A DNA stretch of 64,000 nt from Escherichia phage CL1. The translations under genes were made by a program, and so were the position numbers. The notes under the pieces are model-generated. The model was not told where the DNA came from. It ran no database searches and saw only the letters and a program-made list of their open reading frames with translations. Within the stretch, counting starts at the first letter, position 1; each line of letters starts with the position of its first letter. Positions 38,011 through 55,430 of this stretch are shown piece after piece. Location: the sequence record OK040806. One strand, 5' to 3'.

Positions 38011-38892
38011 ATGAAAACATCTATCCGTGTTACAGTTCATTCACCAACTAAAGGTACTCATGAAGAAGAGTTTAACATCATCCAATTTCCTTCTGGTGAG
38101 ATTGGTGGACACTTTTCACAAGAGCTTGTTGATTTCACTGCTTATGCAGCATCATCCATCAACAATGTGATTATGATTGTAAAAGGTTATGATAAAGACA
38201 CATTGTTTGCTGTGGCACTTGCTAAAGAAGCAATTGATGATTTAGTCCCTCATGATTATGCTTTAAAGACTGTCATCTTTTACTACTTACCAAATGCACG
38301 ATACGACCGTCACATGTTTAAAGGTGATGCAGCAGCTTTAAAGGTTTTTGCTAAGCAGGTCAATGCAATGGGGTTTGGCGCAGTCTGTGCAGTTGACCCT
38401 CACAGTTATGTACCAGATAACCTGTTTAACTGCTTCCAGAGTATTCCTCAAAAGGAAATTGCAGTCCACTATGCAAATGACCCACTGGTTGATTACTTAG
38501 TAGCCCCAGATGCAGGTGCTTCTAAGAAGATTGCAGAGACTGCTAAAGAGGTGGATAAACCATATGTCACAATGTCTAAAGTACGTAACCTTAAGACTGG
38601 TGAAATTACTGGTATGCGAATCCTTGATGATGTTGATTTGACAGATAAAACCGTCATGATTCTGGATGATATTTGCGATGGTGGTCGAACCTTCATAGAG
38701 GCAGCTAAACATCTTCGTGAAGCAGGTGCAAGACGTGTGGAACTCTATGTAACTCATGGCATTTTCTCTAAAGGTGTTGAAAACTTGCTTGACAACGGCA
38801 TTGACCACATCTACACTACAAACTCTTTAGGGGAAGCTAAAGACCGTGGCTTAACACATTATGGTCAAGTTACTGTAGCAAACCTTGATTAA
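38011..38892 (+). CDS. prs: ribose-phosphate pyrophosphokinase (Prs) family protein; possible ADP-ribose pyrophosphokinase
   Basis: Prs-like blocks: YYLPNARYDR, AVDPHSY, LVAPDAGASKKIA, PRPP-binding loop VMILDDICDGGRTF...ARRVELYVTHGIFSKG; start at ATG with GAGGGA SD. Confidence 0.7.
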   Translation: MKTSIRVTVHSPTKGTHEEEFNIIQFPSGEIGGHFSQELVDFTAYAASSINNVIMIVKGYDKDTLFAVALAKEAIDDLVPHDYALKTVIFYYLPNARYDRHMFKGDAAALKVFAKQVNAMGFGAVCAVDPHSYVPDNLFNCFQSIPQKEIAVHYANDPLVDYLVAPDAGASKKIAETAKEVDKPYVTMSKVRNLKTGEITGMRILDDVDLTDKTVMILDDICDGGRTFIEAAKHLREAGARRVELYVTHGIFSKGVENLLDNGIDHIYTTNSLGEAKDRGLTHYGQVTVANLD

Positions 38893-38937: not shown

Positions 38938-40719
38938 ATGACTAACTCACTTTATGCAGTACCAGCAGGTTTAAACGCAGATGCTTACAAATCTGGCCAT
39001 ATTTATCAGTATCCTAGTGTAACAGAGCATCTAATGTTCAACCTGACACCACGTAGTGATAAATGGTTTAACAGCCCTTTAGCAATTGATGGTGTAGTAG
39101 CTTTTGGTATTCAACGTTTTGTTAAAGATTACTTGATAGACCACTGGAATGCCACCTTCTTTGAACGTGACAAAAAAGAAGCAATTGACGAAATCTTGGA
39201 AGTCATGAACGGTGTTCTGGGTAAAGATGCTATTGGTCGAGAACATTGGGAAGCACTTCACGACTTAGGTTATCTACCAGTTGAAGTATACGCTGTAGAA
39301 GAAGGTACAGTTGTCCCTATGCGTGTTCCAATGATTGTATTCCAGAACACTGTTTCAGGTTTCCATTGGGTAGCAGGGTATCTAGAAGATGCTTTCTCTG
39401 CTGAGATTTGGAAGGCTTGTACCATTGCAACTATTGCATTGCACTACAAACGTATCTGTAAGAAGTGGTCTGACCTTACTTGTGACAATGACTTACATTT
39501 ACCTTATCAGTGCCATGATTTTGCTATGCGTGGTATGTCCGGCTTTACTGATGACGCATTTAACGCTGTAGGTCACTTGACTAGCTTTAAAGGAACTGAT
39601 AGCTTCCCTGCTGTGTATACAGCTAAACGCACCTATGGACAGTCCTACCCAATCTCTGATATCGGTGGTTCTGTACCAGCCACTGAGCATTCTGTAATGT
39701 GTGCAAACATTGCTTGGGAAGGTGGTAATGAGTTGATTGAAGAAGAAAGACGCTTTAAAGGTGAGTTACAAACCTTTCGTCGTTTCTTAACAGAAACTTA
39801 CCCAACTGGTATTGCAAGTGTTGTTTCAGATACTTATAACTTCTGGAGAACTGTGTCAGAAATCTTACCAGCACTTCGCAAAGAGATTATGGAACGTGAT
39901 GGTAAACTGGTGATTCGTCCTGACTCTGGAGACCCTGTACATATTGTCACAGGATATAAAGCAATCCACTTAGAGTGTGCTAAAAAGGCTTATTATGAAC
40001 ACCTAAGCAAGCTGGAAGCCAGTGACACAATGCTGAATGCTGTTCTGAACATGAAGCTTGAGAACATCAACTATGGTATTGCTGGGTGGCTACTGTCAGA
40101 AGGCTACGAAATGGTTGTTGACAGAGAAGACTTTGAAGTTGCCGATACAGTAATGTTGAAAAATGCTTATATGGTTGGTTCTGCAAACGTTGTAACGCGT
40201 CCTGTAGCGGAGATTGATGGAGCTATCAAGACACTGTATAACATCTTTGGAGGAACTATCAACTCTAAAGGTTTTAAAGTACTGGATGAGCACATCGGGC
40301 TTATTTATGGCGACTCTATCACGTTGGAACGTGCAAACGAAATACTGAAGCGTTTGTATGAAATGGGTTTTGCAAGCTCTAACGTAGTGTTTGGTGTAGG
40401 TTCTTACACTTACCAGTACATGACTCGTGACACCTTTGCATTTGCTGTCAAAGCAACTCTTGCAAGCATTGGTGGTAAAGAGATTATGCTTGCAAAAGAC
40501 CCTAAAACAGATAGTGGTGTTAAGAAGTCTGCTTTTGGTGGAGTAGCACCTATGTGGGATGGTGAAAATCTGAAAGCTGTAGATGGCTATGGGTTCCAGA
40601 GCTTTGCAGATGCACTTGAACACCCAGCTTGTGCTTTACGTTTAGTCTTTAGCGACTCTGAGCAGTTCGGCTACACGACTCTTGGTGATATTCGAAATAA
40701 TATTGACAAGCAGCTTTAA
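38938..40719 (+). CDS. nadV: nicotinamide phosphoribosyltransferase (NadV/NAMPT) family protein; possible nicotinamide ADP-ribose transferase
   Basis: 593-aa NAPRTase-family-like sequence immediately downstream of the Prs-like gene; longer than typical bacterial NadV. Confidence 0.7.
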   Translation: MTNSLYAVPAGLNADAYKSGHIYQYPSVTEHLMFNLTPRSDKWFNSPLAIDGVVAFGIQRFVKDYLIDHWNATFFERDKKEAIDEILEVMNGVLGKDAIGREHWEALHDLGYLPVEVYAVEEGTVVPMRVPMIVFQNTVSGFHWVAGYLEDAFSAEIWKACTIATIALHYKRICKKWSDLTCDNDLHLPYQCHDFAMRGMSGFTDDAFNAVGHLTSFKGTDSFPAVYTAKRTYGQSYPISDIGGSVPATEHSVMCANIAWEGGNELIEEERRFKGELQTFRRFLTETYPTGIASVVSDTYNFWRTVSEILPALRKEIMERDGKLVIRPDSGDPVHIVTGYKAIHLECAKKAYYEHLSKLEASDTMLNAVLNMKLENINYGIAGWLLSEGYEMVVDREDFEVADTVMLKNAYMVGSANVVTRPVAEIDGAIKTLYNIFGGTINSKGFKVLDEHIGLIYGDSITLERANEILKRLYEMGFASSNVVFGVGSYTYQYMTRDTFAFAVKATLASIGGKEIMLAKDPKTDSGVKKSAFGGVAPMWDGENLKAVDGYGFQSFADALEHPACALRLVFSDSEQFGYTTLGDIRNNIDKQL

Positions 40720-45301: not shown

Positions 45302-45850
45302 ATGAAGAAATTGATTCTAGGCTTGTGCTTAATGTTTACAGCACAATTATCTTATGCAGTTGACTGCCCAGAGCTATCAATTAGCCAAAAAGTTAACATG
45401 TTAAAAGCTTACCAGTATGGTGAGAATAATATGGGGAAAGGCTGGGGTATTACTCTAGCAGCTATAGCCTTACAAGAGTCAGAGTTAGGTCTGAAGGTAG
45501 AGAATAAAAAGACCCACGACTATGGTATTTTCCAGAATCACTTGAAGACTGTTGTAAAGCGTAACAAAATTAGTCCTAATGTGGCTAAAAAGAAACTCTT
45601 AAAAGATTTTGACTATGCAGCAAAAGAGACACATAAAGAGCTTGAGTTTTGGACTAAGGTGCATGGCCACCCGAAGTCAAAGAAGACTTTACAAAAAGTT
45701 TTAGCATCATATAATGCTGGGTATTCGTACAAAATCCCTAAAGCTAAGAAATACTCTCAAGACGTCTATAACAATATGAAAGTTATCGCTCAATGTGAAT
45801 TTGCAACAAACATTTCTAAGGTAAATCATGAAAAAATTAAGAAAGTCTGA
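45302..45850 (+). CDS. secreted lytic-transglycosylase-like protein
   Basis: signal peptide MKKLILGLCLMFTAQLSYA; AAIALQESELG resembles the SLT catalytic E-S motif. Confidence 0.35.
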   Translation: MKKLILGLCLMFTAQLSYAVDCPELSISQKVNMLKAYQYGENNMGKGWGITLAAIALQESELGLKVENKKTHDYGIFQNHLKTVVKRNKISPNVAKKKLLKDFDYAAKETHKELEFWTKVHGHPKSKKTLQKVLASYNAGYSYKIPKAKKYSQDVYNNMKVIAQCEFATNISKVNHEKIKKV

Positions 45851-46523
45851 TGAAGTACTGTGCCATGCTTACGACTTGCATCCTCATGAGTTAGGTCTTG
45901 ATTCCTGTGTATGGACTCCAGAACAGTGCAGAGATTTTGAAGATACTGCAAGAGAAGTTGTATGTTCACTTGAAGAGTTCCACACATCACAACCAATTGT
46001 GAACGTTGTGGATAAAGAGACGGGGCAATCTATAGGTGTAAGACGTGACAGTTTAGTCATAGTCAATAAAGACCTTGTAGAAAAAGGTAACCTCATCTTA
46101 GCAGATATTGATGGTGTTCTTACAAATTTTAATCACGAAGATTGCTCAACGGAATTGACTGATGGGTCATTCTCACAGTACACTAATCTTCTTGACTCTG
46201 TAAGAGCAAAACCAACGTATGTTTTTAGTATTATTGATGCAATCGCTAATCATGCTGCCATTGGACTCTTGACAGCAAGAGGTGAATCTCAGAGAATACC
46301 TACTGAGATGTTTTTAAGGCATAACATAGAGCATGATTACATGCTTTTTATGCGTGGTTTTGGAACTAACTCTATAAGTGCAGAAAGTTTGAAAGTCAGG
46401 ATGATTCAGTCTTGCATTCTACCTTACTTTAATATAGTATGCTTTATAGAAGATACAGAGAAGAATGTTCAGAAGGTAAACAGAGTCCTTCCACACATTA
46501 AAACCATGTTAGTTAAACATTGA
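45828..46523 (+). CDS. HAD-superfamily hydrolase-like protein
   Basis: LILADIDGVLTNF matches HAD motif I (DxDG[TV]); LLTARGE as candidate motif II. Confidence 0.35.
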   Translation: MKKLRKSDEVLCHAYDLHPHELGLDSCVWTPEQCRDFEDTAREVVCSLEEFHTSQPIVNVVDKETGQSIGVRRDSLVIVNKDLVEKGNLILADIDGVLTNFNHEDCSTELTDGSFSQYTNLLDSVRAKPTYVFSIIDAIANHAAIGLLTARGESQRIPTEMFLRHNIEHDYMLFMRGFGTNSISAESLKVRMIQSCILPYFNIVCFIEDTEKNVQKVNRVLPHIKTMLVKH

Positions 46524-47828: not shown

Positions 47829-48136
47829 TTATGCAATTCCAGCCAACCAATCGTGGATTTTCTTATGCAGAATTTAAAGATGCTAAAGGGGAAATTTGTA
47901 CTTTACAGGAGAGTTCATCATATGAACCATGTATTTGGTTAGGTGCTAAAGAGGTCTCTGTTCAGTACCTAGATGGTGGCTGGAAAACACTTGATATCCC
48001 ATCATTAGTAGGCAAAGATTTTGTAGGTAACCAAAGAATGAAACTCAACCAAGAACAGGTGAAAGAGTTATTGCCGTACCTTCAGTACTTTGCTGAAAAT
48101 GGTGAATTACCAACAGAGGAACTTACAAATGGGTGA
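47825..48136 (+). CDS. hypothetical protein
   Basis: 103-aa ORF, ATGA-coupled. Confidence 0.35.
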   Translation: MIMQFQPTNRGFSYAEFKDAKGEICTLQESSSYEPCIWLGAKEVSVQYLDGGWKTLDIPSLVGKDFVGNQRMKLNQEQVKELLPYLQYFAENGELPTEELTNG

Positions 48137-48533
48137 CTGTGCAGATGATGCAGACCGTTGGGCTGAACTTCAAGACTTAAGAGCAGAGTTTAGAGACCTC
48201 TTAGTGAGGTCTTCTAAAACAAATGTAGAGTACACACAAAAGGATTTTCCAAAGGTTCCTTTATATGTTATACACCAAAATAATCTAATGAACTCTGGAT
48301 TAAGTTTGCAACAAAGGATGGAAATTTGCCTAGCAAGGTATTACATTAATGTTGACGCCAAAGTTGGTGAATTGATTAAGTGTCCGTGCTGTAATCTTGA
48401 ATTTAAGAAGAAGTCATACCAACAAAAGTTTTGTGGAGTTAAAAAGAGAGGTCGCTCTAACTGTAAAGACTTCTTCTTTAATTTCACTGACTTAAAAAGA
48501 AATAACAGAGCTAAGTTCTTTATTGTGGGGTGA
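48129..48533 (+). CDS. hypothetical zinc-ribbon protein
   Basis: start moved to ATG (MGDCADD) with GAGGA SD; CPCCN...C...C cluster. Confidence 0.35.
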   Translation: MGDCADDADRWAELQDLRAEFRDLLVRSSKTNVEYTQKDFPKVPLYVIHQNNLMNSGLSLQQRMEICLARYYINVDAKVGELIKCPCCNLEFKKKSYQQKFCGVKKRGRSNCKDFFFNFTDLKRNNRAKFFIVG

Positions 48534-48535
48534 TT

Positions 48536-48862
48536 ATGGAAGTGAACGGTAAAACCATTGTAGCTGTCATCCAAGATAGTGAAAAAGATATTGGTGTAGC
48601 ACAAGTCACATATGGTAACGGCAAGTTCCTATATGGTGTTGTGGCAATGGTAGGAACAAGAAGTGATACAAAAACTTTTAAAGATTGTGTTGACCTTCTT
48701 GAAGAATCCATCCACAATCATTGGTGTCTGATATGGATGACTGACAACGAAGTGATAGAACGCTTCAAAAAGATTGATATCAACATTGATAGTATTGAGC
48801 ATGTTGATTTATATGAGCTAACTGAGAAGGTAAACTATGAAAGTAATACTAGCCAGAGATAA
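48536..48862 (+). CDS. hypothetical protein
   Basis: track start GTG; ATG (MEVNGK) used. Confidence 0.35.
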   Translation: MEVNGKTIVAVIQDSEKDIGVAQVTYGNGKFLYGVVAMVGTRSDTKTFKDCVDLLEESIHNHWCLIWMTDNEVIERFKKIDINIDSIEHVDLYELTEKVNYESNTSQR

Positions 48863-49070
48863 AAAGACCCGCAAGATTGTACGTTCAGCAGTATTCATAG
48901 GGAGAGATGAAGTCGTTCCGTTTGCAGGGGAAGATGTGTTAACTTATAAGAAAGGTTTAAAACGTAAATTCAGTGACCGTTTACGTGGCTTCATATCTGA
49001 ACCATTAGAAGATTTTAAAAGTCGCTGTGGTAAAGGCATCATCACTCAAGAGGCAATTATTCATGGCTGA
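48837..49070 (+). CDS. hypothetical protein
   Basis: 77-aa ORF with GAGAAGG SD. Confidence 0.3.
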   Translation: MKVILARDKKTRKIVRSAVFIGRDEVVPFAGEDVLTYKKGLKRKFSDRLRGFISEPLEDFKSRCGKGIITQEAIIHG

Positions 49071-49263
49071 TTTCTGCAAAGATTGTGCTATCGAAATGTT
49101 CGGACGTGATACAGGTGACTTAAAAGGTCTTATCACTGAAGATGACTTTAAAGCTGGCTATGCAATGCCAGTAATCTGTGAAGGTTGTGGATGTATCTGG
49201 GTAGACCACGAAGGGCAACGTGTAAAACCTTCAGAAGATAAAGAATCTTGGGAGAGATGTTAA
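49063..49263 (+). CDS. hypothetical Cys-rich protein
   Basis: start at MADFCKDC with GAGG SD; CKDC...CEGCGC. Confidence 0.3.
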   Translation: MADFCKDCAIEMFGRDTGDLKGLITEDDFKAGYAMPVICEGCGCIWVDHEGQRVKPSEDKESWERC

Positions 49264-50049
49264 ATGGGTATTGTGAAAATCATCAATGGTGATATCTTTG
49301 CAGCATTTGATAAAGGTAAGTTTGATGTCATCGGTCACGGTTGCAACTGTATGAACTTAATGGGTGCAGGTATCGCTGACAAGATTTCTAAACTTTACCC
49401 AAAAGCATATGAGACTGATACAGAAGTTTATCTGTATGCAGGTGGCATAGGCCACAAGCCCTGTGAGAATTTACTAGGCAATTTCTCTGTAGCACGTTTA
49501 AAACAAGGTCGTATAGCTAACCTTTACACTCAGCTTAAGACTGGTAAAGATGCCCGATACAGTGCTTTAGAGTCATCTTTGAAACAACTTAACAGATACT
49601 GTGAAGTAAATCAGTTGAAGAAAGTTGGCTTGCCTATGATTGGTGCAGGTATCGGTGGGCTAGACCCTCAAGCCGTCACAGTTATCATTAATCAGGTGAT
49701 GAAGAGTGTAGATGTGTATCTGTATGTCTACGAGACAAAGATGTACAACGAGTTACACTCAGGTTGGAAGAACTACTGCGAACCAGAATACTTTGCAGGT
49801 GTAGTAACGTTCACAGACAATACAGTTACCCTCTTCAGACGAAGAAAAGGTAAGATACATCAAAGTAACCCTCCGGTTGAGAAGATGTCTCTAAGTAACG
49901 CTCTAGTTACCCACCTGTCGAAGAGCAATCACAGGATAGCTGTAACATTTGGTAGTGATGCAGATACATATATCTATGCAAGAACTGATGAGGATATCGA
50001 GACGGTCTTCTCTTCACCAGAAGTTACCTTTTTAGGCGCAAAGAACTAA
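49264..50049 (+). CDS. macro-domain-like protein (ADP-ribose binding/processing fold) with C-terminal extension
   Basis: N-terminal INGDIF...DVIGHGCNCMNLMGAGIA and later GLPMIGAGIGGLDP resemble the two Gly-rich macro-domain motifs; ~100-aa unknown extension. Confidence 0.45.
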   Translation: MGIVKIINGDIFAAFDKGKFDVIGHGCNCMNLMGAGIADKISKLYPKAYETDTEVYLYAGGIGHKPCENLLGNFSVARLKQGRIANLYTQLKTGKDARYSALESSLKQLNRYCEVNQLKKVGLPMIGAGIGGLDPQAVTVIINQVMKSVDVYLYVYETKMYNELHSGWKNYCEPEYFAGVVTFTDNTVTLFRRRKGKIHQSNPPVEKMSLSNALVTHLSKSNHRIAVTFGSDADTYIYARTDEDIETVFSSPEVTFLGAKN

Positions 50050-50080
50050 GAAAATCTGTATAATATTCACAATAGACTAA

Positions 50081-50126
50081 GCCTTTCTTATCTGGTAAAT
50101 TTTTTCAGGTAAGGAGGGCTTTTTTT
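50081..50126 (+). terminator. long-stem intrinsic terminator after macro-domain gene
   Basis: GCCTTTCTTATCTG / CAGGTAAGGAGGGC 14-bp stem (three G-U) followed by TTTTTTT. Confidence 0.55.
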
Positions 50127-50320
50127 ATTTCAAGATTGTGCAGGTAGAGTTCTGTAGAGAAATCTGTAGAGAGAATTTTGAACTCCAAAGAGAAAATTCA
50201 TTTTCAAACTGTGCAGGTAATCTCCAAAGAGCTTTTTCATTTTCAAAACGTGCAGACCCCGCTCAGGTCGGGCAAGAAAAATCATTTTAGAATTGTGCAG
50301 GTAGGTGGGTGCAGGTGGGA
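50127..50320. repeat. four direct repeats of ~20 bp (consensus ATTTTCAAANTGTGCAGGTA), two inside tandem 40-bp units
   Basis: copies near 50127, 50199, 50238, 50283 plus GTGGGTGCAGGTGGG; tandem 40-bp units 50181-50220 and 50221-50260. Confidence 0.6.
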
Positions 50321-50479
50321 ATGTCGCCATTTCTCACAAGGCTACCACATCTGGAAATAAAAGTCAACAGAAAAATTTGTAGCGGATTGAAAAATAATTC
50401 TTGATTGTAGTTCTGTTTTGTGGTAGTCGCGCGCACCCGTTTCATTACAATTTTGCAAAAAATATTTTTAAAATTCCTA

Positions 50480-50508
50480 TTGACTCTTTGAGTATGGTTA
50501 TCTAATAT
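50480..50508 (+). promoter_or_regulatory. sigma70-like promoter TTGACT-17-TAATAT heading the small-gene array
   Basis: TTGACT 50480-50485, 17-bp spacer, TAATAT 50503-50508; ~45-nt leader with GGAG SD before ATG 50559. Confidence 0.6.
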
Positions 50509-50558
50509 TTGCATCAGACGGGCAAGCCAGCCCACTTCCTAAACTGGAGAATCTAAAA

Positions 50559-50765
50559 ATGCTTTACAGTCGCGAATTGATGGTTACAACTAACGTTAAC
50601 ACAGGTGTAAAACGTTTCTACATGCAAATCTGCGGCGTATGGTCCAGAATATCAGAAGATGACTATTGCAACTATGTAGGAACGGCTATTAATTCTAATT
50701 GCTATCTGACAAGAAACACTAAGAAATTTACAAGGCAGACAGCGATTTACTACTACGACAAATAA
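50559..50765 (+). CDS. hypothetical small Cys-containing protein (array gene 1)
   Basis: 68 aa; consensus promoter at 50480 and AGGAG-type SD upstream. Confidence 0.4.
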   Translation: MLYSRELMVTTNVNTGVKRFYMQICGVWSRISEDDYCNYVGTAINSNCYLTRNTKKFTRQTAIYYYDK

Positions 50766-50822
50766 AGTACTTTACAGGGGGCTTAAAAGCTGATATCTTA
50801 AGCCCCAGATAAAGAGCTTTAC
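50763..50822 (+). promoter_or_regulatory. cassette A copy 1: TAAAGTACTTTA palindrome, -35 TTTACA, inverted repeat GGGGGCTTAA-N11-TTAAGCCCC enclosing -10 (TATCTT), then ATAAAGAGCTTTAC
   Basis: TTTACA 50771-50776, 17-bp spacer, TATCTT 50794-50799; IR 50777-50806. Confidence 0.5.
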
Positions 50823-50853
50823 TAAATTAACCCTTAAACTAGGAGATTCAAAA

Positions 50854-51234
50854 ATGGCTTATCGTGCACCGAAATTCATCAACAAAGACAACTTCCGCAA
50901 CGCACTGGAGAAGTCACTTGATGAAAAATTTAACGGCAAATTGATTGTTGTTCACGCATTCAATTTTAAGTATGATATTAACGGGAATAAAATCAACCAT
51001 TACACGGCAACCATGTTAGATGGTACGCTATCAAGTGAAAAAGCCGTACTGAATGCACTTGCAGGACGTGGTAAAAACCTGATAAGATGCGATAAGAGAC
51101 GTTATCAGGGTGGCGCATATGGTTATGATGATGCTGTTTATCATCTTGAAAATATGGGCTATTCAGTGGAAAAAGCTGGAGTGTCTCAAATAATCGGCAG
51201 TGATGGTTATGTAACAATCTTCAAAATTAACTAA
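50854..51234 (+). CDS. hypothetical protein (array gene 2)
   Basis: 126 aa; preceded by cassette A and conserved GGAGATTCAAAAATG initiation region. Confidence 0.45.
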   Translation: MAYRAPKFINKDNFRNALEKSLDEKFNGKLIVVHAFNFKYDINGNKINHYTATMLDGTLSSEKAVLNALAGRGKNLIRCDKRRYQGGAYGYDDAVYHLENMGYSVEKAGVSQIIGSDGYVTIFKIN

Positions 51235-51294
51235 TAAAGTACTTTACAAGGGGCTTATAGTTCGATAAAGTAAGCCCCAGATAAAGAGCTTTAC
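51235..51294 (+). promoter_or_regulatory. cassette A copy 2 (GGGGCTTA-N13-TAAGCCCC; -10 TAAAGT)
   Basis: palindrome 51235-51246, TTTACA 51243-51248, TAAAGT 51266-51271, IR 51250-51278. Confidence 0.5.
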
Positions 51295-51322
51295 CACTAA
51301 ATCCTAAATTGGAGATTCAAAA

Positions 51323-51580
51323 ATGGCTATCATCAAAAACGTTGTAATTACTGCAAAGACTCGTGATGACGCTCGCATCATGGCGAAAAAGTTAGGCGGG
51401 AAAGTGGTTGACAACGGAAAACAATCTGCTGTAAGATGGGGCGTGAAGGCTGATAAAAAGTTAACCTTAAAACGCAGTTCAAATAACCTCTTTAAAGGTG
51501 TAAAATCACTCGGTAAAGTGAACGTGTTTACTAAACAAGGTTACAAAATGCACTTATCATTAACTGGCAATTTAATCTGA
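51323..51580 (+). CDS. hypothetical basic protein (array gene 3)
   Basis: 85 aa; cassette A upstream. Confidence 0.45.
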   Translation: MAIIKNVVITAKTRDDARIMAKKLGGKVVDNGKQSAVRWGVKADKKLTLKRSSNNLFKGVKSLGKVNVFTKQGYKMHLSLTGNLI

Positions 51581-51640
51581 TAAAGTACTTTACAAGGGGC
51601 TTATAGTTCGATAAAGTAAGCCCCAGATAAAGAGCTTTAC
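51581..51640 (+). promoter_or_regulatory. cassette A copy 3 (identical core to copy 2)
   Basis: palindrome 51581-51592, TTTACA 51589-51594, TAAAGT 51612-51617, IR 51596-51624. Confidence 0.5.
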
Positions 51641-51669
51641 TAACTAAATCCTAAACTGGAGATTCTAAA

Positions 51670-52182
51670 ATGAAAACTGTAGACGCTACCTTTGAAGTTG
51701 TAAAAGAAAAATTCACCATTATTTATGAAGCTGTCAATTGCTTTGAAGCAAGCCATAATCTTGATAATTGGAAGTTTACAGATGACCATCAAGGCGGCGT
51801 GACGATTAAAAATCCTAACTGTCAGAGTAATGAATTTAAATATGCAATCCCTTTGCATTACAGCCTTAAGCAGCTTTCAAGTGACTATGCAAAACAAGGC
51901 CGTGAGAATCCATCGAAAGAGGCTTACACGAGCTTACAGAAAGAACTAGAAAGGGATTTAGAGGCTTCAGAGTATAACATTGCCGCGAAAGTTGTAGATG
52001 CAAACGGTAGCACGGTTTTAGAGAGTTTTTATATTGGTTATGCTTTCGATTGGTGCTACAGTGACGGCGATGATTTAGATGACAGACTAAAAGAGGAAGT
52101 GAACAACGCAGACGCAGAATCTGAAGTATTAGAACGCTTGGAAGCATTAAAAGATTCAGTGATGAATATCTTTAAGAACTAA
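51670..52182 (+). CDS. hypothetical acidic protein (array gene 4)
   Basis: 170 aa; cassette A upstream. Confidence 0.45.
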   Translation: MKTVDATFEVVKEKFTIIYEAVNCFEASHNLDNWKFTDDHQGGVTIKNPNCQSNEFKYAIPLHYSLKQLSSDYAKQGRENPSKEAYTSLQKELERDLEASEYNIAAKVVDANGSTVLESFYIGYAFDWCYSDGDDLDDRLKEEVNNADAESEVLERLEALKDSVMNIFKN

Positions 52183-52184
52183 AT

Positions 52185-52242
52185 AGATTTCTTTACACGG
52201 GGCTAACAAGCGGATATGATAGCCCCAGATAAAGAGCTTTAC
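52185..52242 (+). promoter_or_regulatory. cassette A copy 4 (variant IR GGGGCTA-N14-TAGCCCC; -10 TATGAT)
   Basis: TTTACA 52192-52197, TATGAT 52215-52220, IR 52199-52226 with compensatory stem change. Confidence 0.5.
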
Positions 52243-52270
52243 TACTAAATCCTAAACTGGAGACTCTAAA

Positions 52271-52567
52271 ATGAAATTATCGAATAAAGTTCGTGAAAAC
52301 CTTAGTAAATTACTCAACAAAATTGATTTTATCGAGACATCAAGAAATAATCATGATGTTATGGAATGGTTGCACGGCAAAATAAAAGGCCGTCGCGTAG
52401 TGATTTGCTTATGGAATAGTTGCAGGGAGTATAAAAAGCCTGTATTGCAAATTAATGTTTATGATGATACTTTTAAAAGTCCTGTAAAGTCTAAAAGCGA
52501 TTTATTAGAATCCTATGAGATAACTGTAAATGGCAAAGTATCACGTAAAGAGGAAACACCATGTTAA
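52271..52567 (+). CDS. hypothetical protein (array gene 5)
   Basis: 98 aa; cassette A variant upstream. Confidence 0.45.
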   Translation: MKLSNKVRENLSKLLNKIDFIETSRNNHDVMEWLHGKIKGRRVVICLWNSCREYKKPVLQINVYDDTFKSPVKSKSDLLESYEITVNGKVSRKEETPC

Positions 52568-52893
52568 TGACTGGTATCACTGCAATCATTGCCATTTTCG
52601 CGCTATATAAGGCATATAAAGCCTATAATCTAGCAAATAAGGCAATCACACAGCAAGTTAGTAATAACCTTGTAGAGAGCTTTCTAGGGCGTTTAAGTGA
52701 TGAGCAAATAAAGCGGCTAGAGATGAGCTTCAGATATAAAGCGAAAACCTATCAGATAAGTGACATCTTCAAAGAGGATTTTCAGCTTGTCGATGATTAT
52801 AACTCACTGATAAATGCTTTAAATATCAGTGACTTAAAAGATTATTACGCTGTAATTGTCCAAGAACTGAACAAACGAAAACAAAACTGTTGA
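52561..52893 (+). CDS. hypothetical membrane-anchored protein (array gene 6)
   Basis: 110 aa; N-terminal TM helix (MLMTGITAIIAIFALY); overlaps previous gene (ATGTTAATG); no cassette of its own. Confidence 0.4.
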   Translation: MLMTGITAIIAIFALYKAYKAYNLANKAITQQVSNNLVESFLGRLSDEQIKRLEMSFRYKAKTYQISDIFKEDFQLVDDYNSLINALNISDLKDYYAVIVQELNKRKQNC

Positions 52894-52945
52894 CACTGAT
52901 TTTTAGATAACCTAAATTACTAATCAACGGGAGGGATGACCTCCC
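52890..52945 (+). promoter_or_regulatory. cassette B copy 1: promoter TTGACA-17-TAAATT plus 5' leader stem-loop GGGAGG-GATGA-CCTCCC
   Basis: TTGACA 52890-52895 (overlaps upstream stop), TAAATT 52913-52918, hairpin 52929-52945, conserved leader to ATG 52980. Confidence 0.55.
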
Positions 52946-52979
52946 ACTAAACAAAGTCCTTAAACTAGGAGATTCAAAA

Positions 52980-53252
52980 ATGTATACTACTAATAACGGT
53001 CGTACTCTAAATGTAACTTTGCGCCACTATGTTAACGGCGTGATGCACTTTGAAGATTTACAAGCTGAACAACATATCTTAGATTGGCAACTTGCAGGAC
53101 TACAAAAAACTGCTACAGGATACGGGAAAAAGATTCCAACTAGTTGGAAAGTATACTATGAAGGGCGTTTGCGCAGAATTTATCAAGATGTATACAGCAA
53201 TAGCGCAACAAGTTACATCATGGTAAAAGGTAAAAAATTACACTTAGTATAA
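52980..53252 (+). CDS. hypothetical protein (array gene 7)
   Basis: 90 aa; cassette B upstream. Confidence 0.45.
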   Translation: MYTTNNGRTLNVTLRHYVNGVMHFEDLQAEQHILDWQLAGLQKTATGYGKKIPTSWKVYYEGRLRRIYQDVYSNSATSYIMVKGKKLHLV

Positions 53253-53309
53253 AGTACTTTACAAGGGGCTTATAGTTCGATAGAGTAAGCCCCAGATAAA
53301 GAGCTTTAC
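53250..53309 (+). promoter_or_regulatory. cassette A copy 5 (-10 TAGAGT)
   Basis: palindrome 53250-53261, TTTACA 53258-53263, TAGAGT 53281-53286, IR 53265-53293. Confidence 0.5.
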
Positions 53310-53338
53310 TACTCAATCCTAAATTGGAGAACTTAAAA

Positions 53339-53743
53339 ATGGCTATTAATAACCGTGAGTTATCAATCTTAAAAGCACGTTTGACCGTTAACCGGATTAA
53401 TGTTATTACGTCATCAGCACCGGACGAAACATTACACAACATTATTGGGAAGATTCAAAGTGTTATCTTAGACGTTGAAAGCGTAAAAAACTCATTGGCT
53501 GACGTTGCAGCAGGTATCACGCTAGACGGTGCACAATATGAAATGGCTGACATGTTAGGCAAATCAAAGGTAATGAATAAAGAGCTTGATTTAAAAATGT
53601 TCCGTTTTGCCGTGAAAGTGTGGCTATCTGTCGAGTATGACGCAAATTTTGCAATCGCTGACTTTTTCGCAACATGGTTGCAACGTAATTTAACAAATTA
53701 TGATTTTCGTGATATCTGTGACGCAATTTACGCAGAACTCTAA
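53339..53743 (+). CDS. hypothetical protein (array gene 8)
   Basis: track start is TTG; ATG at 53339 sits at the conserved distance from the cassette A SD. Confidence 0.45.
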   Translation: MAINNRELSILKARLTVNRINVITSSAPDETLHNIIGKIQSVILDVESVKNSLADVAAGITLDGAQYEMADMLGKSKVMNKELDLKMFRFAVKVWLSVEYDANFAIADFFATWLQRNLTNYDFRDICDAIYAEL

Positions 53744-53752
53744 AAAATTTTA

Positions 53753-53808
53753 TTGACACTGATTTTTAAAACAAGTAAATTACTAATCAACGGGAGGGAT
53801 GACCTCCC
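53753..53808 (+). promoter_or_regulatory. cassette B copy 2
   Basis: TTGACA 53753-53758, TAAATT 53776-53781, hairpin GGGAGG/CCTCCC 53792-53808. Confidence 0.55.
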
Positions 53809-53842
53809 CACTAAGTAAAGTCCTTAAACTAGGAGATTCAAA

Positions 53843-54043
53843 ATGGCTATTATCAACGGTTTAAACATTGAAACTACTCATATCAAAGATATCAAAGTTG
53901 GCGATGTAGTCCTTTCCCACGGCGTAGAAAAAACTGTCACTGCAAAGGATATTAAAGAGGATTCTTTCATGGGTAGGACTCTCTTCGGTGATTCTTATTG
54001 CTTAGGTTATCTTGCAGTTTTAAAAGTTGTCAAAAATAACTGA
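53843..54043 (+). CDS. hypothetical protein (array gene 9)
   Basis: 66 aa; cassette B upstream. Confidence 0.4.
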   Translation: MAIINGLNIETTHIKDIKVGDVVLSHGVEKTVTAKDIKEDSFMGRTLFGDSYCLGYLAVLKVVKNN

Positions 54044-54103
54044 TAAAGTACTTTACAAGGGGCTTATAGTTCGATAAAGTAAGCCCCAGATAAAGAGCTT
54101 TAC
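54044..54103 (+). promoter_or_regulatory. cassette A copy 6 (-10 TAAAGT)
   Basis: palindrome 54044-54055, TTTACA 54052-54057, TAAAGT 54075-54080, IR 54059-54087. Confidence 0.5.
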
Positions 54104-54138
54104 CACTAAATCAAGTCCTTAAACTAGGAGATTCAAAA

Positions 54139-54702
54139 ATGAAATGCTATCACGGAACTACACTCAAAAACTTTGTAAACCTGCTGAATGGTGGCGATAA
54201 GCCTGAAGGTATCTGGAACTGTTCCTACATGGACGATTGTTTCTATGTTTACCCAATGAATAAGGTTATCAAAATGGGATGTCTGGAAGATGAAGAAGAT
54301 TCTTACATCCGTGAACGCTGCATTCAAAGTGCCTTAGAGTCGGGGCTTATTACGGCTGCTTTCCAAATGGAAACGCAGGACGTGATTGTTATTGAAATGG
54401 ATATCCCAGAGGAAGAACTAGAGGACGATTATTCTTGTGACAACATGAGCGAAATTGCCAGCTTTACCGGATACTTTGATAAAAATTGGATTGTTAGCAT
54501 CCACTCAACGAAATTTAGTGCGATGTATGCACCTTTCTTTGTACCTGATACGAAAAACCGCAACTTGGGATATGTTGACGATGATTTGTTGAGTATTGCA
54601 AAAATTGTACAGAATAGCGGTGATAGTTCCGTGTTTTGTGACCTACTGGATAAAATCACGGAAAACCTCACAGAACGCAATTTAAAGGACTTTTTAGGAT
54701 AA
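54139..54702 (+). CDS. hypothetical protein with ADP-ribosyltransferase-like N-terminal motif (array gene 10)
   Basis: 187 aa; N-terminus MKCYHGTTLKNFVNLLNGG resembles the [FY]HGT NAD-binding strand of H-Y-E-class ARTs, Tyr cluster SYMDDCFYVY follows; motif-level only. Confidence 0.35.
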   Translation: MKCYHGTTLKNFVNLLNGGDKPEGIWNCSYMDDCFYVYPMNKVIKMGCLEDEEDSYIRERCIQSALESGLITAAFQMETQDVIVIEMDIPEEELEDDYSCDNMSEIASFTGYFDKNWIVSIHSTKFSAMYAPFFVPDTKNRNLGYVDDDLLSIAKIVQNSGDSSVFCDLLDKITENLTERNLKDFLG

Positions 54703-54765
54703 GCAGTACAAAGACACCAACTTTTAACTTAAGGCCCACACAGGGCCATTTAGAGGGCTTCAAAC

Positions 54766-54999
54766 ATGCTTACAACCGTTTATCTTATCCTTTCTATTTG
54801 TAATGGTCATTCATGTGATTTTAAAGGGCTTGAGGAGTTTACAGGAAGTAAAGAAAATGCCGTTCAGGTCTGTCAGATAGCAAGACAAGACTACCCCGCC
54901 AGTGATGATATACAATGTTACTTTAAGACAGAAGATGAAGAGGGTATCTATTTCGATAGTGTAGACGGGCAATATGAAATTATCATTGAAAAAGACTAG
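54766..54999 (+). CDS. hypothetical protein (array gene 11)
   Basis: 77 aa; hydrophobic N-terminus; no cassette, short hairpin upstream. Confidence 0.35.
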   Translation: MLTTVYLILSICNGHSCDFKGLEEFTGSKENAVQVCQIARQDYPASDDIQCYFKTEDEEGIYFDSVDGQYEIIIEKD

Positions 55000-55053
55000 A
55001 CAAGCCTGATAAAAGTCTGTAAATTGTCAATCAACGGGAGGCGATAACCTCCC
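54997..55053 (+). promoter_or_regulatory. cassette B copy 3 (-35 TAGACA; loop CGATAA)
   Basis: TAGACA 54997-55002, TAAATT 55020-55025, hairpin 55036-55053. Confidence 0.5.
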
Positions 55054-55088
55054 AACTAAACAAAGTCCTTAAACTAGGAGATTCAAAA

Positions 55089-55430
55089 ATGGCTTATGTA
55101 ACCGTAATTACCAATAAAGAAGATTCATCTTGGTCAACTCAAGTAAGCGATAAGATGTCACCTATGCAGTGCCTAAAATACTTTGAGCAATGGAACAAAG
55201 GCGAGGATACCAGCCCCTTTCAAGTGATGCAGATTATCCATACAGATAACGAAGGGAATAAAACTGTTTTGAATAGTGAGTACTATGCAACCAGATTCGA
55301 AACGAGAAGTAAAGCAATGAAGCTCTTACGTGAATCCGGTTATTCTCATATTGCCGCGCTAATCTGGGATGACCTGCTAAAAAATCAGCGTATCAGCTAC
55401 GTAAAACCTGAAAAAATATTCATCAGTTAA
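55089..55430 (+). CDS. hypothetical protein (array gene 12)
   Basis: 113 aa; cassette B upstream. Confidence 0.45.
   Translation: MAYVTVITNKEDSSWSTQVSDKMSPMQCLKYFEQWNKGEDTSPFQVMQIIHTDNEGNKTVLNSEYYATRFETRSKAMKLLRESGYSHIAALIWDDLLKNQRISYVKPEKIFIS

Follow-up and report, generated by a model that had tools for sequence, protein, structure and literature searches.

Which reaction is catalyzed by the macrodomain protein of Escherichia phage CL1 (sequence record OK040806), and could this reaction serve NARP1, the pathway for rebuilding nicotinamide adenine dinucleotide (NAD+) that the same phage encodes? The gene in question occupies positions 49264–50049 (+ strand) of the analyzed stretch of 64,000 nucleotides, hereafter the window. 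This ATG-to-stop open reading frame (ORF) encodes a two-domain protein of 261 amino acids, the orthologue of C600M2_92 and Bas63_0095. Comparison of sequences and predicted structures makes it, on balance, probable that the protein is an Adpp-type phosphatase of ADP-ribose-1''-phosphate (ADPR-1''-P), which feeds ADP-ribose (ADPR) to the phage's own NARP1, is encoded by a gene unlinked from the NARP1 genes and carries a fused orphan domain.

The ORF is a real, conserved gene of Felixounavirus. The region 48000–52000 of the window is 100% identical to Escherichia phage C600M2 (Felixounavirus) and 90–95% identical to about 180 other records of the Felixounavirus group. The DNA of the macro gene is 100% identical in C600M2, and the protein is 96% identical to its orthologue Bas63_0095 in the BASEL phage JohannRWettstein. 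The family PHROG 335 ('phosphatase') matches the full length of the 261-residue protein (E 5e-112). The public label of the gene is 'O-acetyl-ADP-ribose deacetylase' in C600M2 and 'phosphatase' or 'macro domain-containing protein' in other records. Since the public records already annotate the gene in this way, the macro assignment itself is not new.

Macrodomain Fold and Family

Residues 1–156 (49264–49731, + strand) represent a genuine macrodomain, the match being far beyond chance. It is assigned to an Adpp/Poa1p-like type with a characteristic glutamine (Gln-type) by Pfam, PDB profile search, AlphaFold2, Foldseek and alignment with Adpp of Vibrio phage Gary and other NARP1-associated macrodomains. 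The Pfam family Macro (PF01661) gives a match of 32.3 bits (cut-off 22) that covers residues 25–141 and profile positions 2–117 of 118. In the PDB, a profile of 32 homologues finds human TARG1/OARD1 (4J5S) as the best sequence match (E 3.7e-17), and also DarG, SCO6735, BT1257 (the latter two, 5E3B and 2FG1, at E ~1e-13) and yeast Poa1p.

The full-length AlphaFold2 model has a pLDDT (predicted local distance difference test) of 92.8 and a pTM (predicted template modeling score) of 0.89. Its top Foldseek matches are Poa1p, TARG1 and DarG, with E values of about 4e-10 and target TM-scores of 0.77–0.87 (E 4e-10 and 0.77 for Poa1p, which is the first match; 0.87 for TARG1). These alignments span only about 155–180 columns, i.e., the N-terminal macro part, and all structural and sequence matches end near residue 156–168. 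The macro fold suggested by an earlier sequence-only reading of this locus is thus borne out by Pfam, the PDB profile matches, the structure prediction and the fold search.

Placement within the macrodomains was approached through phage relatives. A tblastn search ties the protein to the macrodomain of a Thalassavirus, Vibrio phage IW18, which is sited between Adps and Namat and is nearly identical to Adpp of Vibrio phage Gary (KNV71_gp137). Identity of the window protein to Gary Adpp is 29%; it reaches 33–35% for the NARP1-associated copies of Pakpunavirus and Acinetobacter phages, 25% for that of Vibrio phage RYC and 41% for a jumbo-phage copy. For the sampled NARP1-associated macrodomains other than that of RYC, the values range from 29% to 35%. 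In a neighbor-joining tree, which is rough and without bootstrap, the two-domain clade of Felix-like phages is nested in a Gln-type family holding all the sampled NARP1-associated macrodomains. This family also includes the T4-like 'Tk.4 phosphatase' proteins and bacterial homologues, with AdfM of phage phiKZ and TARG1 standing outside. Judged by sequence, the macrodomain belongs to a phage family whose one characterized member is Gary Adpp.

The two proteins have the motifs H-x-C/A-N-C, N-x-Y-x-Q and I-G-x-G-[IL]-[GA]-G in common, and each of the two phages also encodes Adps and Namat. The arrangement differs: the Gary Adpp gene stands between Adps and Namat, whereas 8.5 kb, or about 15 genes, separate the window gene from NARP1. 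Moreover, the window protein continues into an additional C-terminal domain (about 100 residues), which is lacking in the sequences of about 150–170 amino acids given in the available part of Table S1 of Osterman et al. (bioRxiv 10.64898/2026.01.28.702374).

Active Site and Possible Reversal of DNA ADP-Ribosylation

The first glycine-rich loop, GHGCNCMNLMGAGIA (residues 24–38, 49333–49377, + strand), includes the invariant H25 (49336–49338) and N28 (49345–49347). The motif NLYTQ (residues 86–90, 49519–49533, + strand) contains the invariant Q90 (49531–49533), located at the position of the catalytic lysine of TARG1, DarG and AdfM. In the second glycine-rich (diphosphate-binding) loop, GLPMIGAGIGG (residues 122–132, 49627–49659, + strand), G131 stands in place of D125 of TARG1. 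Both loops had been quoted by the sequence-only reading, and both are present in the protein. The residues invariant in the 32 homologues include H25, G26, N28, C29, N86, Y88, T89, Q90, P124, G127 and G129, and the pair T-Q is kept in 74 of 80 bacterial homologues. The NARP1-associated macrodomains in the available part of Table S1 share H-x-[CA]-N-[CA], N-x-[YH]-x-Q and G-x-G-L-[AG]-G, with the glutamine invariant.

H25 aligns with H24 of Gary Adpp and with H23 of Poa1p. Adpp H24A is listed among the mutated variants of the pathway that combines NARP1 with Adpp (NARP1-AP), and Adpp mutations abolish anti-aRES activity (bioRxiv 10.64898/2026.01.28.702374). Yeast Poa1p (PDB 6LFQ/6LFR) is itself an ADPR-1''-P phosphatase, and its first loop is nearly identical to that of the window protein (HSCNCNGSWGGGIA...YPKA in Poa1p versus HGCNCMNLMGAGIA...YPKA). 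It differs in overall sequence (22% identity), in having serine where the Gln-type family has its invariant glutamine and in lacking the C-terminal domain. Of the Poa1p residues probed by mutation in the crystal structures (H23, S30 and F152), H23 is conserved as H25, and S30 and F152 correspond to L32 and G131.

The catalytic center of the lysine-dependent macrodomains is not retained. Q90 aligns with the catalytic lysines K84 of TARG1, K80 of DarG and K78 of AdfM, and in the profile alignment both members of the TARG1 dyad Lys84-Asp125 are replaced (K84 by Q90, D125 by G131). Because of these replacements, the protein does not have the lysine-based chemistry used by TARG1, DarG and AdfM. N28 aligns with N22 of DarG, N23 of AdfM and N27 of SCO6735. 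SCO6735 from Streptomyces and BT1257 are ALC1-like macrodomains of the Gln-type, in which asparagine and glutamine replace the lysine-based center, as in the window protein. They are encoded by stand-alone genes, like the bacterial relatives of about 151 amino acids, and lack the C-terminal domain. The substrates shown for SCO6735 are DNA with ADP-ribosylated thymidine (dT-ADPr) and proteins ADP-ribosylated on Glu/Asp; its Gln85 and Asn27 are essential for ADP-ribose removal from thymidine in DNA. N28 and Q90 correspond to Asn27 and Gln85 by transitivity, through the alignment to TARG1 and a published structure-based alignment.

This correspondence leads to another possible function. The protein could be an anti-DarT2 enzyme removing ADP-ribose from thymidines of phage single-stranded DNA (ssDNA), like DarG2, AdfM of chimalliviruses and SCO6735, and its C-terminal domain might help to bind DNA or the toxin. 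The domain falls into the ALC1-like class of TARG1, DarG and SCO6735, the reversal of thymidine-ADPr having been called a unifying activity of this class, and N28 with Q90 mirrors the two essential residues of SCO6735, which protects against DarT. The phage macrodomain AdfM (phiKZ gp104) is a proven anti-DarTG2 factor. According to published data, T4 lacking AdfA and AdfN is still resistant to DarTG2, suggesting further anti-DarT2 factors in coliphages. DarG is also the best model for the protein in both NCBIfam and PADLOC; however, these models match the macro part only, and the NCBIfam model NF048014 remains far below its cut-off (47.7 bits versus 250), covering profile positions 12–151 of 338.

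DarG2 and AdfM belong to the same broad macro class with the conserved asparagine, and DarG2 likewise consists of two domains with the macrodomain at the N-terminus. They differ from the window protein in the catalytic lysine, replaced here by glutamine, and in overall sequence (22–25% identity); AdfM is an outgroup to the Gln-type family and is a single-domain protein directed to the phage nucleus. The DarT-binding domain of DarG is unrelated to the C-terminal domain of the window protein, which lacks similarity to any PDB entry, DarTG complexes included, and has a net charge from −5 to +4 among orthologues. A DarT partner is lacking here, and no DarT-like gene is conserved beside the 80 bacterial homologues. 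Finally, the sole characterized member of the family is a phosphatase acting on a soluble metabolite. An anti-DarT2 role is therefore regarded as unlikely, although it is the main rival of the phosphatase reading. The reversal of DarT-type modification, which had been among the roles proposed from the sequence, could still apply, but the catalytic lysine of DarG and AdfM is replaced by glutamine.

The NARP1 Genes and the Proposed Phosphatase Reaction

The NAD module noticed upstream by the sequence-only reading consists of two genes. Adps (ADPR pyrophosphate synthetase, labeled 'ribose-phosphate pyrophosphokinase'; 38011–38892, + strand), the first enzyme of NARP1, is 78% identical to Bas63_0079. 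Namat (labeled 'nicotinamide phosphoribosyltransferase'; 38938–40719, + strand), the second enzyme, is 97% identical to Bas63_0080. Both are putative partners of the macrodomain protein. NARP1 was discovered and demonstrated experimentally in Bas63 genes 79–80: Adps pyrophosphorylates free ADP-ribose, and Namat joins the product with nicotinamide to form NAD+. Assignment of the module to NARP2 was ruled out, since the genes are orthologues of Bas63 genes 79–80. The suspected connection of the macro gene with this module gains substance in that the module is a proven NARP1 operon, a consumer of free ADP-ribose, and homologous macrodomains are found inside NARP1 operons.

The substrate for such a connection could come from the aRES defense. 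Its RES-domain NAD+ phosphorylase converts NAD+ into nicotinamide and ADPR-1''-P, which is unusable by NARP1; the bacteria with aRES include E. coli, Klebsiella and Enterobacter (bioRxiv 10.64898/2026.01.28.702374). Osterman et al. reported in the same work that a Poa1p-like macrodomain is encoded within two genes of the operon in 15% of NARP1 phages, and that purified Gary Adpp converts ADPR-1''-P to ADP-ribose in vitro. Adpp is also needed if aRES is to be overcome.

According to the proposed mechanism, residues 1–156 would function as an Adpp-type hydrolase, binding the ADP-ribose moiety and removing a substituent at the 1'' carbon of the distal ribose. This substituent would most likely be the phosphate of ADPR-1''-P, so that free ADP-ribose would be released. 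ADPR-1''-P would be supplied by the RES-domain NAD+ phosphorylases of aRES in the course of NAD+ destruction. The phage Adps and Namat, 8.5 kb upstream, would then rebuild NAD+ in two reactions: ADPR + ATP → ADPR pyrophosphate (ADPR-PP), and ADPR-PP + nicotinamide → NAD+. The phage would in this way escape aRES in addition to the canonical NADase defenses, and the net result would be a NARP1-AP pathway with the phosphatase gene unlinked from the operon.

Several observations agree with this mechanism. The first loop is a close match to that of Poa1p, the catalytic H25 is invariant, and the aRES hosts E. coli, Klebsiella and Enterobacter overlap the host range of the phage group. The macro gene and NARP1 also occur together. 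In the window the start of the macro gene is on the same strand as Namat, 8.5 kb downstream of it. In the Felix-like IMG/VR loci with enough upstream flank, Adps and Namat precede the macro gene by about 7.5–10 kb, the exceptions or rearrangements being L088 and possibly L111. The order Nampt-like gene, rIIA, rIIB, Pnkp-like gene, macro gene is retained in two metagenomic lineages whose two-domain proteins share only about 33% identity. In the phage collection, 243 records of the two-domain macro protein stand against 257 records of Namat at identity of at least 60%, with 43 of each in the 60–80% band. Among the three roles proposed from the sequence, feeding of ADP-ribose into NAD+ reconstitution is the best supported, because the homologue from a NARP1 operon was shown to be an ADPR-1''-P phosphatase feeding NARP1; for the window protein itself we infer this function and the joint work with NARP1.

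A number of points weigh against this assignment. The activity is a predicted one, and identity to the sole characterized Adpp is only 29%. S30 and F152 of Poa1p are not conserved (L32 and G131, respectively), and the pair N28/Q90 would fit a thymidine-ADPr DNA hydrolase of the SCO6735 type equally well. The macro gene is not in the operon, being located beyond two genes from Adps or Namat, and its co-occurrence with NARP1 in the Felix lineage could simply reflect inherited synteny. The available part of Table S1 (bioRxiv 10.64898/2026.01.28.702374) contains no Escherichia, Salmonella or Shigella phage, so the Felix protein falls outside the published survey as represented there; this absence is to be expected, because the survey covered two genes on either side of NARP1 and the Felix gene is about 15 genes away. 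About 47 of 52 viral loci with macro-only proteins (~90%), the T4-like 'Tk.4 phosphatase' included, are situated away from NAD genes. Since most members are not near such genes, the family may have a broader or different primary substrate than ADPR-1''-P. Further, ADP-ribose cyclic phosphate (ADPR-cP) accumulated in Bas63-infected cells, so it is not evident that every side product is cleared by the protein. Finally, the assignment gives no explanation for the C-terminal domain.

Relatives in Other Phages and Bacteria and Alternative Substrates

In the remaining 5 of the 52 macro-only loci, which represent about 4 independent lineages among 36, Nampt/Namat- or Adps-like genes are found at a distance of up to 10 kb, and one copy is 4 kb from Adps-Namat. 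The other recurrent neighbors of macro-only copies are rIIA/rIIB and RNA-repair-like genes. In T4-like genomes (e.g., NC_054905.1, 83313–83792; 'tk.4' of Bp7), the macro-only Gln-type 'Tk.4 phosphatase' gene adjoins vs; it is present in many Tequatrovirus-like phages, with no NARP1 nearby. The bacterial relatives, found in 486 species genomes, are stand-alone proteins of about 151 amino acids without the C-terminal extension, and no conserved neighbor (e.g., DarT, Sir2 or an ADP-ribosyltransferase) was found in 80 loci.

A dense NAD/ADPR cluster is present in an IMG/VR jumbo-phage contig of 246.8 kb (L154, 7047–15570). It includes genes for a Nudix-domain protein, SLOG (YAcAr), Nampt, the macrodomain, a Swiss-army-knife HAD phosphatase, dCMP deaminase, SIR2 and a Prs-like protein; a second contig (L158) has the same arrangement. 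The start of the L154 macro gene overlaps the stop codon of Nampt, i.e., the two are translationally coupled. A metagenomic protein of 339 amino acids (P0027) has a Gln-type macrodomain fused to the 'cyclic-phosphate processing receiver domain' cREC (PF20274; 30.8 bits versus a cut-off of 27), which is predicted to open the ADPR 1''-2'' cyclic phosphate to the monophosphate. This fusion suggests a two-step enzyme, in which ADPR 1''-2'' cyclic phosphate would be converted to ADPR-1''-P and further to ADP-ribose. The Nampt-coupled copy, the copy 4 kb from Adps-Namat and the cREC fusion are independent contexts that speak for a phosphatase feeding NARP1.

Between NARP1 and the macro gene of the window lies a Pnkp-like HAD gene (45828–46523, + strand), whose counterpart Bas63_0087 is labeled 'polynucleotide kinase'. 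Its position is kept in all the Felix-like lineages examined, including the two with only about 33% identity. RNA ligase, P-loop kinase and metallophosphoesterase genes adjacent to macro genes elsewhere hint at a link with RNA repair.

These surroundings bear on a broader function. The protein could be an 'ADPR clean-up' enzyme, not tied to aRES, acting on other soluble ADPR derivatives substituted at 1'' or 2''. The candidate substrates are O-acetyl-ADPR formed by sirtuins, the ADPR-cP/ADPR-P side products observed in Bas63 infection, and ADPR-1''-P derived either from the breakdown of the ADPR-PP/ADPR-cP of NARP1 or from KptA/sirtuin-type RNA repair, which depends on NAD; the enzyme might also strip ADPR from proteins or RNA ends. 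Such a general role appears quite improbable. It would agree with the public labels of deacetylase or phosphatase, with TARG1/OARD1 as the top PDB relative and with the accumulation in Bas63 infection of ADPR-cP, a presumed product of spontaneous ADPR-PP breakdown. The macro-cREC fusion, the frequency of macro-only members in phages without NARP1 nearby, the constant Pnkp-like gene of Felix-like phages and the family neighbors in several phage lineages (SIR2, Swiss-army-knife HAD phosphatase, RNA ligases, P-loop kinases, metallophosphoesterases) point in the same direction. However, no family member has been shown to act on any of these substrates, the catalytic dyad of TARG1 is absent, and each neighbor association covers only 4–8 of 36 lineages and may represent shared synteny of the early region. 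Hydrolysis of ADPR-1''-P, anti-DarT2 activity and clean-up are not mutually exclusive.

Degradation or sequestration of ADPR-derived immune signal molecules (the 2'cADPR or 3'cADPR of Thoeris, or His-ADPR), in the manner of RyDEP, could be considered as well. RyDEP is set in NARP1 operons and converts cyclic ADPR (cADPR) signals to ADP-ribose feeding NARP1, and macrodomains bind ADPR derivatives. Cleavage of a ribose-ribose glycosidic bond is not known for any macrodomain. Since the catalytic histidine and glutamine are invariant, an enzyme is favored over a sponge. No evidence was found for the degradation of ADPR-derived signals, which had been another of the suggested roles, and both forms of this function are hardly to be expected.

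The C-Terminal Domain

The second part of the protein (49732–50046, + strand) is an orphan module composed of a linker helix (about residues 158–167) and a mostly beta domain (about 170–261). In the AlphaFold2 model, the segment of about residues 157–261 contains helix 158–167 and, behind it, six beta strands together with a short helix; its pLDDT is 84–93 in the full-length model and 76 when it is modeled alone. About 19 protein clusters share the extension, at overall identities as low as 33%, with P174, G179 and Y236 invariant or nearly so. The C-terminal extension singled out by the sequence-only reading is consequently real, conserved and predicted to be folded.

Database searches connected it with no known family. 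Against Pfam only an insignificant match to NAC was obtained (E 0.12). PHROG returned the protein's own family only, and BFVD only the SUSP2 orthologue. The best PDB hits in the profile search were beta-propeller blades (E 0.12), taken as spurious. Among 1.84 billion representatives, a profile of the domain picked up nothing beyond orthologues, truncated fragments and repeat proteins (PQQ-like propellers, etc., also spurious), and no relative was detected when the remaining ORFs of the window were compared. Assignment to a known fold or domain was rejected on the basis of these searches in Pfam, PHROG, PDB, BFVD and the 1.84 billion representatives.

Specific candidates were also considered. 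Because its net charge ranges from −5 to +4, the domain does not behave consistently as a mimic of ssDNA or as a binder of nucleic acids; a DarG-like ssDNA mimic is unsupported, the charge being variable and not consistently acidic. A fused aRad1, an inhibitor of aRES, was rejected, as BLAST showed no similarity and no aRad1-like ORF was found in the window. A cREC domain or a 2H cyclic phosphodiesterase is unsupported as well: the hhalign probability against the cREC domain of P0027 is 0.2%, and the candidate histidines are not conserved.

Related loci show variation in this part of the gene. Relatives similar to those of Erwinia phages have a C-terminal extension of equal length without detectable homology (hhalign probability 0.1%). 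Two IMG/VR contigs of about 84.6 kb, similar to Erwinia phage phiEa21-4 by their Namat, encode such 260-residue macro proteins (L113, 8483–9265; L114, 9998–10780), in which the otherwise invariant catalytic histidine is replaced by glutamine (AQGCNC). These proteins could combine the same enzyme scaffold with another tail, the phosphatase activity being possibly altered or lost. Another contig (L112, IMGVR_UViG_2974574300_000001, 84.4 kb) has a Felixounavirus-like backbone with Namat and Adps 96% and 94% identical to those of the window, respectively; its two-domain macro protein is only 41% identical to the window protein. This locus looks like an allele replacement, a sign of exchange or of strong diversification of the gene.

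The C-terminal domain is taken as a lineage-specific addition packed against the macrodomain, for which partner binding, substrate selection and oligomerization are possible roles. It is doubtful that the domain is a second, independent counter-defense module, i.e., a binder or inhibitor of a defense protein such as aRES or DarT, or a new phosphodiesterase of ADPR-1'',2''-cyclic phosphate. As a binder, it may act stoichiometrically against a host defense protein that consumes NAD+ or ADP-ribosylates its targets, by analogy with the macrodomain and toxin-binding domain of DarG. As a phosphodiesterase, it may recycle dead-end by-products of NARP1 jointly with the macrodomain. The Erwinia-type tail without detectable homology and the 41% identical allele of L112 fit a fast-evolving, partner-specific module, without showing one.

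Downstream Genes and Non-Coding DNA

The macro gene is followed by a non-coding gap of 509 bp (50050–50558), which contains 3–4 spaced direct repeats (50127–50304) with a unit like AAAAWTCATTTTCAAAMTGTGCAGGTA, about 39–45 bp apart. A similar stretch seems to be conserved downstream of the macro gene in the Erwinia-phage-like contigs, where an antisense pseudo-ORF reads '...SKMIFLARP...'. The repeats could represent a series of promoters or of sites for protein binding. Around the macro gene, scans for tandem repeats and for terminators gave nothing of note. In the region 50559–55430, small genes are separated by regular spacers of about 85–100 bp (e.g., 50766–50853, 51235–51322, 51581–51669 and 52183–52270).

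An ORF in the same region (54139–54702, + strand), which encodes 187 amino acids and starts with MKCYHGT, had been taken for an ADP-ribosyltransferase-like gene. This could not be confirmed: no similarity to any ADP-ribosyltransferase was found by Pfam, PHROG, PDB sequence or PDB profile search, and no other known family was matched by sequence or profile either. The ORF is conserved (51–92% identity) only in Felix-like phages (PHROG 3303), and its N-terminal YHGT is suggestive at most.

Implications for Felix-O1-Like Phages and NARP1-AP

The macrodomain adds a new member to a family that has only just been described, and the function of the protein is not categorically new. New features are the split arrangement of the genes in a large and well-studied phage group and the orphan C-terminal domain. 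Should the protein act against DarT2 instead, it would have no precedent in coliphages as a Gln-type, non-DarG-like macrodomain directed against this toxin.

If the protein is an ADPR-1''-P phosphatase feeding NARP1, then NARP1-AP would be more common than the published 15% of NARP1 phages, since unlinked phosphatase genes would escape a survey that looked only within two genes of NARP1. The whole Felix-O1-like group, with about 250 records in the phage collection, would be added, including therapeutic candidates and Bas63 itself, and Bas63 would be predicted to resist aRES in dependence on its gene 95. In this case the phosphatase would have acquired an accessory domain without known relatives, and a binding partner of this domain could point to the way in which the enzyme is targeted or regulated.

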